From IMG/VR virus record IMGVR_UViG_2877958089_000001: a DNA stretch of 11,559 bases. One strand, 5' to 3'. The notes below the pieces were generated by a model, which worked only from the letters and a program-made list of their open reading frames with translations, searched no databases and was not told the origin of the DNA. Shown here one piece after another: positions 7,700 to 10,575 of this stretch; positions within the stretch are counted from its first letter, which is position 1, and every line of letters starts with the position of its first letter. The DNA is from a virus. Its lineage: Duplodnaviria > Heunggongvirae > Uroviricota > Caudoviricetes. Made by a program: the position numbers and the translations under genes.

Positions 7700-7926
7700 C
7701 ATTTTGCGGGTCCTTTCCGGCGATCCGACAGGTTACGGGGCGGCGACCTCGCGGGTTTTCGCTATTTATGAAAATTTTCCGGTTTAAGGCGTTTCCGTTC
7801 TTCTTCGTCATAACTTAATGTTTTTATTTAAAATACCCTCTGAAAAGAAAGGAAACGACAGGTGCTGAAAACGGGCTTTTTGGCCACTGTCGTTTCCTTT
7901 CTCTGTTTTTGTCCGTGGAATGAACA
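7700..7926 (+). other. Lambda-type cos packaging site: cosN 12-nt cohesive-end sequence GGGCGGCGACCT at 7738-7749, cosB region downstream to the Nu1 start, cosQ region upstream
   Basis: ...GATCCGACAGGTTACG/GGGCGGCGACCTCGCGGGTTTTCGCTATTTATGAAAATTTTCCGG... matches the lambda right-end/left-end junction as I recall it; includes the inverted repeat GAAAGGAAACGACAG...CTGTCGTTTCCTTTC just before Nu1. Confidence 0.85.
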
Positions 7927-8472
7927 ATGGAAGTCAACAAAAAGCAGCTGGCTGAAATTTTCGGCGCGAGTATCCGTACCATTCAGAACTGGCAGGAGCA
8001 GGGAATGCCCGTTCTGCGAGGCGGTGGGAAGGGTAATGAGGTGCTTTATGACTCTGCCGCCGTCATAAAATGGTATGCCGAAAGGGATGCTGAAATTGAG
8101 AACGAAAAGCTGCGCCGGGAGGTTGAAGAACTGCGACAGGCCAGCGAGACAGATCTCCAGCCAGGGACTATTGAGTACGAACGCCATCGACTTACGCGTG
8201 CGCAGGCCGACGCACAGGAGCTGAAAAATGCCAGAGACTCCGCTGAAGTGGTGGAAACCGCATTCTGTACTTTCGTGCTGTCGCGGATCGCAGGTGAAAT
8301 TGCCAGTATTCTCGACGGGATCCCCCTGTCGGTGCAGCGGCGTTTTCCGGAACTGGAAAACCGACATGTTGATTTCCTGAAACGGGATATCATCAAAGCC
8401 ATGAACAAAGCAGCCGCGCTGGATGAACTGATACCGGGGTTGCTGAGTGAATATATCGAACAGTCAGGTTAA
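7927..8472 (+). CDS. nohD: Terminase small subunit (lambda Nu1 homologue), 181 aa
   Basis: Full-length ORF immediately after cosB; N-terminal winged-HTH region MEVNKKQLAEIFGASIRTIQNWQEQGMPV; recognised as lambda Nu1. Confidence 0.95.
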   Translation: MEVNKKQLAEIFGASIRTIQNWQEQGMPVLRGGGKGNEVLYDSAAVIKWYAERDAEIENEKLRREVEELRQASETDLQPGTIEYERHRLTRAQADAQELKNARDSAEVVETAFCTFVLSRIAGEIASILDGIPLSVQRRFPELENRHVDFLKRDIIKAMNKAAALDELIPGLLSEYIEQSG

Positions 8473-10372
8473 CAGGCTGCGACATTTTGTCCGCGCCGGG
8501 CTTCGCTCACTGTTCAGGCCGGAGCCACAGACTGCCGTTGAATGGGCGGATGCTAATTATTATCTCCCGAAAGAATCCGCATACCAGGAAGGGCGCTGGG
8601 AAACACTGCCCTTTCAGCGGGCCATCATGAATGCGATGGGCAGCGACTATATCCGTGAGGTGAATGTAGTGAAGTCTGCCCGTGTCGGTTATTCCAAAAT
8701 GCTGCTGGGTGTTTATGCCTACTTTATAGAGCATAAGCAACGCAACACACTTATCTGGTTGCCGACGGATGGTGATGCCGAGAACTTTATGAAAACCCAC
8801 GTTGAGCCGACCATCCGCGATATTCCGTCGCTGCTGGCGCTGGCTCCGTGGTATGGCAAAAAGCACCGGGATAACACGCTCACCATGAAGCGTTTCACCA
8901 ATGGTCGTGGCTTCTGGTGCCTGGGCGGTAAAGCGGCAAAAAACTACCGTGAAAAGTCGGTGGATGTGGCGGGTTATGATGAACTTGCTGCCTTTGATGA
9001 TGATATTGAACAGGAAGGCTCTCCGACGTTCCTGGGTGACAAGCGTATTGAAGGCTCGGTCTGGCCAAAGTCCATCCGTGGCTCCACGCCCAAAGTGAGA
9101 GGCACCTGTCAGATTGAGCGTGCAGCCAGTGAATCCCCGCATTTTATGCGTTTTCATGTTGCCTGCCCGCACTGCGGGGAGGAGCAGTACCTTAAATTCG
9201 GCGATAAAGAGACGCCGTTTGGCCTCAAATGGACGCCGGATGATCCCTCCAGCGTGTTTTACCTCTGCGAACATAATGCCTGCGTCATCCGCCAGCAGGA
9301 GCTGGACTTCACTGATGCCCGTTATATCTGCGAAAAGACCGGGATCTGGACCCGTGATGGCATTCTCTGGTTTTCGTCATCCGGTGAAGAGATTGAGCCA
9401 CCGGACAGCGTGACCTTTCACATCTGGACGGCGTACAGCCCGTTCACCACCTGGGTGCAGATTGTCAAAGACTGGATGAAGACGAAAGGGGATACGGGAA
9501 AACGTAAAACCTTCGTGAACACCACGCTCGGTGAGACATGGGAAGCGAAAATCGGTGAACGTCCGGATGCTGAAGTGATGGCAGAGCGGAAAGAGCATTA
9601 TTCAGCGCCCGTTCCTGACCGTGTGGCTTACCTGACTGCCGGTATCGACTCCCAGCTGGACCGCTACGAAATGCGCGTATGGGGATGGGGGCCGGGTGAG
9701 GAAAGCTGGCTGATTGACCGGCAGATTATTATGGGCCGCCACGACGATGAACAGACGCTGCTGCGTGTGGATGAGGCCATCAATAAAACCTATACCCGCC
9801 GGAATGGTGCAGAAATGTCGATATCCCGTATCTGCTGGGATATTGGCGGGATTGACCCGACCATTGTGTATGAACGCTCGAAAAAACATGGGCTGTTCCG
9901 GGTGATCCCCATTAAAGGGGCATCCGTCTACGGAAAGCCGGTGGCCAGCATGCCACGTAAGCGAAACAAAAACGGGGTTTACCTTACCGAAATCGGCACG
10001 GATACCGCGAAAGAGCAGATTTATAACCGCTTCACACTGACGCCAGAAGGGGATGAACCGCTTCCCGGTGCCGTTCACTTCCCGAATAACCCGGATATTT
10101 TTGATCTGACCGAAGCGCAGCAGCTGACTGCTGAAGAGCAGGTCGAAAAATGGGTGGATGGCAGGAAAAAAATACTGTGGGACAGCAAAAAGCGACGCAA
10201 TGAGGCACTCGACTGCTTCGTTTATGCGCTGGCGGCGCTGCGCATCAGTATTTCCCGCTGGCAGCTGGATCTCAGCGCACTGCTGGCGAGCCTGCAGGAA
10301 GAGGATGGTGCAGCAACCAACAAGAAAACACTGGCAGATTACGCCCGTGCCTTATCCGGAGAGGATGAATGA
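8447..10372 (+). CDS. A: Terminase large subunit (lambda gpA), 641 aa, apparently full length
   Basis: GTG start inside the 3' end of Nu1 (26-nt overlap) as in lambda; Walker-A-like KSARVGYSK; no internal stops; sequence recognised as gpA. Confidence 0.95.
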
Positions 10373-10575
10373 CGCGACAGGAAGAACTTGCCGCTGCCCG
10401 TGCGGCACTGCATGACCTGATGACAGGTAAACGGGTGGCAACGGTACAAAAAGACGGACGGCGAGTGGAGTTTACGGCCACTTCCTTGTCTGACCTGAAA
10501 AAATACATTGCGGAGCTGGAAGTGCAGACCGGCATGACACAGCGACGCAGGGGACCTGCAGGATTTTATGTATGA
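10369..10575 (+). CDS. W: Head-tail joining / DNA stabilisation protein W, 68 aa
   Basis: ATGA overlap with the A stop; sequence recognised as lambda gpW. Confidence 0.9.

Follow-up and report, generated by a model that had tools for sequence, protein, structure and literature searches.

A recently deleted DLP12-family prophage remnant of Escherichia coli with an intact lambda-type cos site and complete terminase genes

The viral sequence IMGVR_UViG_2877958089_000001 of IMG/VR (Caudoviricetes), a stretch of 11,559 nucleotides that is called the window throughout, was analysed for a cos site and terminase genes carried by a prophage without head and tail genes. From its sequence, the window is assigned to a lambda-family prophage of Escherichia coli, inserted at the tRNA-Arg gene argU and belonging to the DLP12 family, with the cos and terminase region forming the left end of its late operon. 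The element is very probably a recently deleted remnant of this family, with cos and terminase still intact through the youth of its deletions. It is an ordinary element of an already understood kind and no new mobilisation system.

The element and its cos and terminase region

Approximately 12 finished E. coli chromosomes matched the window at ~100% identity, and in these the locus adjoins argU, between the fim/sfm and cus loci. The window begins at the stop codon of intD, with argU 16 bp away in the matching finished genomes, and the gene order was found to be intD, yfd genes, quuD, porin, essD-rrrD-rzpD, bor, ybcV, ybcW, ylcI, nohD, A, W, a truncated portal gene (B′), a tail-fibre scrap, a truncated tfa (tfa′) and a methyltransferase. 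Both hallmarks of DLP12 are thus present, namely integration at argU with intD and the order of genes from quuD through porin, essD-rrrD-rzpD, bor, ybcV, ybcW and ylcI to nohD. The remnant measures ~14 kb from intD to the truncated tfa, its right-hand boundary not having been located. Apparently complete lambda-like prophages at the argU site were found in 18 listed genomes, such as that of O113:H21 FWSEC0010, with shared parts 99.2% identical; prophages of the FWSEC0010 type contain repressor, cro, replication-region genes, Q, a lysis cassette and Nu1 through J and more. The closest non-deleted prophage was that of strain 2014C-4135, with 99.7% identity from cos to B′ and differences at 9 of 3,582 positions.

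The cohesive-end sequence cosN, GGGCGGCGACCT, was found as a single exact match on the plus strand, and in a shuffle control any match with one mismatch or fewer appeared in only 6 of 200 shuffles. With position 7738 set as cosN bp 1 (= lambda bp 1) and with the DE3 record and PV340536 as the lambda comparison, every defined cos subsite was identical to lambda, bp 55–63 of R3 included (Table 1). The corresponding lambda segment, 48442–178, is the insert of a working cos cosmid, pOER1 (PMC4856287). The role and conservation of cosQ have been described (PMC4669245), as have the function of I2, the critical nature of its bp 30–35 and the required spacing between cosN and cosB (PMC4856287). R3 comprises bp 50–65, with contacts at bp 55–63, and R2 and R1 share a 16-bp sequence (PMC9026076, PMC4856287, PMC4669245), R1 being accessory and non-essential (PMC4669245). 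A strict integration host factor (IHF) consensus expression gave no match over cos, and the assignment of the IHF-bent segment I1 rests on its lambda identity.

The earlier note on this DNA had suspected a few differences from lambda in cosB. Between 7690 and 7926, four substitutions lie upstream of cosN, outside the cosQ heptamer, and three lie in the spacer between R2 and R1 (7871, 7874 and 7886), leaving R3, R2 and R1 identical. The segment 7690–7870 is identical to phages Turner and PhiR11_1; 7871A and 7874G occur also in phage 2H10 and 7871A also in PhiR26_1. The base 7886A was absent from the compared phages and present in the non-deleted prophage of 2014C-4135. Because all the defined subsites are identical to those of lambda, a terminase of lambda specificity can very likely use this cos to initiate packaging.

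An 85-amino-acid open reading frame (ORF) on the minus strand runs across cosQ, cosN and R3, and its counterpart is annotated as a hypothetical protein in Turner and PhiR11_1; it matched nothing in Pfam and probably does not represent a gene. A promoter and terminator scan around cos performed no better than on shuffled sequence. No Chi site, GCTGGTGG, was found on either strand of the window. To the left of cos, the finished genome has its nearest Chi at a distance of 8.7 kb, in a stretch that is masked in the window, and this Chi has the orientation that would be active for RecBCD entering from a cut cos.

The terminase genes were found to be complete. Nu1 (nohD) matched the Pfam family Phage_Nu1 over its full profile and differed from lambda at only three of 181 residues (D10E, A75T and L132I), with the recognition helix (residues 17–24) and the wing (31–39) unchanged; residues 1–98 match solved structures of the lambda small subunit. 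The large subunit, gpA, showed a single residue change from lambda in 641 (T466I; phages Turner and 2H10 have Ile here as well), compared with 37 codons that differ synonymously, an excess that is read as the signature of past selection in active phages. The finished lineage genome AMSCJX02 and the non-deleted prophage of 2014C-4135 encode an identical gpA, WP_001027290.1, and the window differs from both only at a third-position single-nucleotide polymorphism (SNP) at 9262. A sequence search of gpA against all PDB chains returned nothing at E ≤ 1e-5, and therefore no solved structure is available for a detectable sequence relative of gpA, unlike Nu1. The head-tail joining protein W differed from lambda at one of 68 residues (V40L), and L40 marks the deletion lineage. 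Over 7300–10881 the identity between window and lambda is 97.8%.

At 10881, inside the portal gene, the homology shared with lambda and with intact relatives stops, and the portal stub covers only positions 2–75 of the 354 of the Pfam portal profile. It is followed by the internal tail-fibre scrap (ATNSTSETLAATPKAVK...) and by tfa′, which is annotated in RefSeq as an intact 177-amino-acid coding sequence. Compared with a full-length Tfa, ~17 N-terminal residues are missing, and tfa′ is probably a fragment produced by a further rearrangement near 11024. Neither the window nor the finished genomes that match it contained C, Nu3, D, E, FI, FII, Z–J or lom. The earlier description of this DNA, in which cosN with its flanking cosQ and cosB, Nu1, a full-length gpA and W are all present, the portal is truncated and everything from C to the tail fibre is gone, was thus borne out.

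Two deletions and their age

The loss of the head and tail genes is accounted for by a deletion that runs from portal codon 104 into the side tail-fibre gene, with a size of ~18 kb by analogy with lambda. A second deletion was located by comparison with a relative of the FWSEC0010 type; in the coordinates of this relative (L003), window position 2704 corresponds to 19970 and window position 2697 to 25899. It took the LexA-family repressor, cro, replication-region genes, rusA, kilA-N and most of a DUF968 gene. It also left quuD directly downstream of a same-strand hypothetical gene of 171 amino acids. The antiterminator QuuD, the role of which in K-12 has been described (PMC7918800 and works cited there), would direct late transcription towards cos and the terminase genes.

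The exact junction of portal and tail fibre occurs in 12 of 5,426 complete E. coli genomes, and eight representatives of the lineage differed from the window by 0–3 SNPs over 7300–11559 (4.26 kb). The W(L40) allele was found in 1,195 index blocks, with the lineage being common among draft assemblies, and all 25 of the 25 longest contigs that carry it have the same deleted context. In one lineage member, LR882057.1, a G>A change at the equivalent of window position 8072 converts Nu1 W49 to an amber codon, with A and W intact, and some members carry insertion sequence (IS) insertions and deletions in the lysis region. The deletion lineage is very young. Because the junction is rare, the representatives differ by so few SNPs and one member has a nonsense codon in Nu1, cos, Nu1, A and W are intact most likely through recency of the deletions rather than retention by the host.

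DLP12 of K-12 (qsr′, with the arrangement cos-nohD-aaaD′) shares with the element the argU site, intD and the gene order, with 98.8% identity over window positions 5393–8754. The K-12 prophage differs in that A is cut at ~codon 103 and joined to tfaD, whereas the window has a complete A and W with 103 codons of B; the early region and the right arm of the element also differ, with a vgrG island in place of appY-ompT, the porin is intact and the IS3 and IS5 insertions are absent. Since A was truncated in K-12 by a different, larger deletion, the terminase is dispensable. A complete terminase beside gutted morphogenesis genes is a rare and short-lived stage of decay and no conserved arrangement.

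Domestication, in which the host keeps cos and terminase, for example for anti-phage cutting or titration of cos DNA or as a regulated break site for recombination, was considered highly unlikely. Cos and Nu1 have been kept without head and tail genes independently in K-12 DLP12, in K-12 Qin and in an element at the Qin site with complete A and W, the late (lysis) operon of DLP12 is transcribed and Q-dependent in K-12 (PMC7918800), and many public assemblies carry exactly these protein alleles. The left end of the deletion varies, however, from the end of Nu1 to the portal, with A and W often lost, and each of the two arrangements that keep a complete terminase is rare and young, the Qin-site element with complete A and W, which has a longer portal stub, being found in 3 of the 5,426 genomes beside the 12 of the present lineage. 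Cos and Nu1 moreover adjoin retained genes (bor and the lysis cassette), so that simple hitch-hiking is possible. The proposal of the earlier note that the resident terminase could cut the cos sites of incoming phages found no support, the Nu1 W49 nonsense allele inside the lineage counting against it as it does against domestication in general, and a resident terminase, if made, would be expected to cut its own chromosomal cos, a liability and not a benefit.

Table 1. Coordinates of the features of the window and of the junctions compared in other strains (positions refer to the window unless indicated)
Feature	Position	Strand	Remarks
Complete lambda-type cos	7677–7915	+	Equivalent to lambda 48442–178
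cosQ heptamer, GGGTCCT	7708–7714	+	Termination signal, 30 bp upstream of cosN; identical in lambda (48473–48479), Turner and PhiR11_1
cosN	7738–7749	+	12-base cohesive-end sequence; exact match, flanks identical to lambda
I2, spacer from cosN to cosB	7750–7786	+	Same sequence and length as lambda, no indel; includes critical bp 30–35 (7767–7772)
cosB R3 (lambda bp 50–65)	7787–7802	+	Critical Nu1 binding site; identical to lambda
I1, IHF-bent segment between R3 and R2	7803–7845	+	Identical to lambda
cosB R2	7846–7861	-	Inverted copy of the 16-bp R sequence; identical to lambda
cosB R1	7887–7902	+	Accessory Nu1 site; identical to lambda, adjacent 5′ base 7886 A, not T
Nu1 (nohD), terminase small subunit	7927–8472	+	181 amino acids, intact; Pfam Phage_Nu1 positions 1–164 of 164
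A, terminase large subunit	8447–10372	+	641 amino acids, intact; both Pfam domains (ATPase and endonuclease)
W, head-tail joining protein	10369–10575	+	68 amino acids, intact; full-length Pfam match
Portal (B) stub	10572–10931	+	Codons 1–103 of 533, then 16 out-of-frame codons to a stop
Portal/tail-fibre deletion junction	10876–10881		6-bp microhomology AAGAAG
Tail-fibre (stf) internal scrap	10882–11024	+	47 codons
Tail-fibre assembly gene tfa′	11026–11559	+	Lacks ~17 N-terminal codons; annotated start CTG
Second deletion junction	2697–2704		8-bp overlap; 5.9 kb gone relative to FWSEC0010-type relative
intD, integrase ORF	1–1164	-	387 amino acids, intact in the window
Run of 100 N	1816–1915		Stands for 2,366 bases of finished genomes (yfdT–yfdP region)
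Hypothetical gene	2170–2685	+	171 amino acids
quuD, Q-type antiterminator	2811–3194	+	Placed from finished-genome annotation via offset
Porin gene (nmpC-type)	3384–4481	-	365 amino acids, intact
Run of 100 N	5293–5392		Stands for 679 bases of finished genomes (rrrD and most of rzpD)
ORF across cosQ, cosN and R3	7554–7811	-	85 amino acids
Shared right-end junctions, other strains	L012 9629; L013 ~711; L014, L015 and L016 ~701; L026 ~2517; L025 ~2501		Positions in the stretches of other strains

Packaging from a single chromosomal cos

Lambda packages ~38–51 kb of DNA, and the remnant lies far below this size. Packaging starts at cosN with cosB and ends at cosQ with cosN of a downstream cos (PMC9026076, PMC4856287, PMC4669245); without the terminal cut, translocation continues, the DNA protrudes and tails cannot attach (PMC4669245, PMC4856287, PMC6687093). 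A unit running from cos to cos calls for a second cos in the same orientation ~38–51 kb downstream, and in AMSCJX02 no second cos was found in either orientation within 53.8 kb downstream, the 12-mers with two mismatches or fewer from cosN having neither cosQ nor cos flank. In the absence of a second cos there is therefore no cos-to-cos transducing unit, and the element is not a packageable unit. The claim that the DNA remains a valid substrate for lambda-type packaging stands accordingly for initiation, for which the subsites are identical, and fails for termination. In the finished genome the path of packaging leads rightward through Nu1, A, W, the remnants, the vgrG island, cusSR/CFBA, pheP, the ent/fep cluster and beyond.

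The means by which a satellite moves were also looked for. No exact repeat of the argU 3′ end of at least 14 bp was found within ~64 kb in AMSCJX02, although a diverged attR could escape this search, which is informative for that genome only; a 47-bp repeat has been reported in K-12 (PMC6379469), the K-12 stretch used here ending just short of it. No excisionase is annotated, with only a truncated helix-turn-helix fragment near intD, and the annotated genes of the element include no primase, replicase or O/P-type gene, the region that serves replication in the intact relative being deleted here. No Rpp-type protein was found, the gene after cos being a genuine Nu1. Because it has no replication genes, attR repeat or Rpp, has a cosB of the lambda type, and carries its own terminase (Nu1 and A) and lysis genes (essD, rrrD and rzpD), the element is not satellite-like on the features tested.

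The cos-type phage-inducible chromosomal islands (PICIs) belonging to the EcCICFT073 type have in common with the element a chromosomal location, cosQ with cosN and the lack of capsid genes; they differ in having no lambda cosB, in using Rpp for TerS and in possessing replication and regulatory modules, excision and a block on the helper, none of which was found here (PMC9026076, PMC6739421). The likeness to cos-type satellite islands drawn in the earlier note was consequently given up. That the element is a proto-satellite, able to excise, form multimers and be packaged by a helper as one unit, was judged extremely unlikely. The intD reading frame is intact in the window, the cos is present and taken to be functional, and, as with cosmids, a lambda head could in principle be filled by multimers of a small circle that bears cos. 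Against this stand the missing argU repeat and excisionase, the deleted replication region with neither primase or replicase nor an origin module, the replacement of the right arm by the vgrG island and, in one lineage member, an internal stop in intD (AMSCJX02, in which intD is so annotated and which differs by a single C/T at window position 668). The lack of Rpp and the lambda-type cosB point the same way (PMC9026076).

It has also to be considered whether the lone cos starts packaging by a helper, or by the resident terminase with helper proheads, rightward through cus, pheP and ent/fep in a manner resembling lateral transduction. This is essentially the process proposed in the earlier note, and also that of docL formation or in situ packaging, in which a chromosomal cos starts packaging into the adjacent host DNA. 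Excision-defective lambda lysogens reportedly gave docL particles with a cos start and an end in host DNA, in studies by Little and Gottesman in 1971, by Sternberg and Weisberg in 1975 and by Sternberg in 1986. The docL work concerned induced, replicating, excision-defective but complete prophages, and its products were defective particles and not efficient transducers; docL heads cannot be joined to tails until nucleases have trimmed them, which counts against such a launch. In its favour are cosN, I2, R3, I1 and R2, all identical to lambda, a direction of packaging that leads into core genes, and the documented packaging of defective lambdoid prophages by helpers (PMC2669165). With no second cos within the 53.8 kb, and hence no terminal cut and no attachment of tails (PMC6687093, PMC4856287), and with no replication genes to amplify the region, this reading is very unlikely. 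The more specific version, in which the perfect cos serves as a fixed launch point and lambda-type helpers package ~50 kb of core chromosome (cus, pheP and ent/fep), the ends being trimmed by nuclease or cut imprecisely, is given very little credence.

Packaging by helpers is, moreover, already known in principle. The defective prophages of O157 Sakai likewise combine morphogenetic defects with an intact terminase and cos, helpers supply their missing functions, and the shared cos allows cross-packaging (PMC2669165); in K-12, an interaction of lambda with the cos/nu1 region of DLP12 has been shown (PMC3945230). The packaged Sakai prophages were excised or regionally amplified first and were near unit length (PMC2669165), whereas the present element is a remnant without replication genes or a detectable attR. 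Compared with lambda itself, the cos subsites are identical and Nu1, gpA and W nearly so, and the window differs in having no proheads, tails, replication or immunity, its cos being a single copy in the chromosome without a partner cos.

Several points weigh against the reading of a recently deleted remnant with a still recognised cos. The change 7886 T>A next to R1, Nu1 D10E and W V40L are absent from the sequenced phages compared, D10E and 7886A being found also in one non-deleted prophage. Cleavage of the cos and the expression and activity of this terminase allele are all deduced from sequence. The lineage is common in draft assemblies and is therefore no dead end, and weak selection to keep the terminase is formally compatible with so few mutations. 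The search for a second cos covered one finished genome of the lineage, AMSCJX02, and not the source strain of the window.

Proposed history, neighbouring features and significance

With the reading of a recently deleted remnant preferred, a complete argU prophage would have lost two blocks by microhomology-mediated deletion, namely the immunity and replication region and the ~18 kb from portal codon 104 into the side tail-fibre gene, and the remainder would have become stuck in the chromosome. Its cos would still be recognised and nicked by a terminase of lambda specificity, whether this comes from a lambdoid phage that infects the cell or, should late transcription extend to the terminase genes, from the element; the late operon of K-12 DLP12 is transcribed and is Q-dependent at the lysis cassette (PMC7918800). 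Packaging started at this cos would not terminate, and no finished transducing particles are expected because no second cos lies in range. The cut or homologous cos region may instead make the locus a hot recombination partner for infecting lambdoid phages, which could pick up cos, nu1 and lysis alleles from it. In K-12, lambda frequently acquires DNA from DLP12, cos adjoins 10 of the 19 junctions that were sequenced, and lambda hybrids with DLP12 nu1 or lysis genes are viable (PMC3945230).

Among the neighbouring genes, the porin gene between quuD and essD is intact, whereas that of K-12 is interrupted by IS5. To the right of the window, beyond the right arm of the prophage, the lineage has an island of vgrG, DcrB-like and prePAAR-type type VI secretion system cargo, where K-12 has appY-ompT-envY. 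Open reading frames called across the two runs of N, such as 1687–2685, are artefacts.

In elements of the Qin and DLP12 types of other strains, six left partners were found joined to exactly the same right-hand base, at the start of ACCGCGCTGACAGACAATACGCAGGGGG: the portal (codon ~144), the nohA 3′ end, nohD, gpU, J and another tail gene. A C-terminal tail-fibre domain of ~300 amino acids, lying upstream of tfaQ-pinQ, begins with ACCGCGCTGACAGACAATACGCAGGGGG, and strain DEC9B has this sequence within an intact tail-fibre gene of the P2 type. In every left partner the break follows an N-T-purine triplet belonging to that partner. A Pin/PinQ crossover was not supported as the cause of the shared breakpoint, no site resembling the Pin crossover site (taken from PMC12529663) being present there. 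Constancy of the right end, combined with left ends that vary, points to a site-specific process.

Genuine as it is, the finding is ordinary and of an already known kind. An intact cos with a complete terminase in a gutted prophage represents an early stage of the known decay of DLP12-type elements and not a satellite or mobilisation device. If the docL-like reading of the cos as a launch point were true, it would give cos phages a way to move core genes, a route resembling lateral transduction that is currently assumed not to exist for cos phages. In practice the element is relevant as a source from which infecting lambdoid phages can acquire cos, terminase and lysis alleles by recombination, and as a possible site of chromosomal breakage whenever a terminase of lambda specificity is present.

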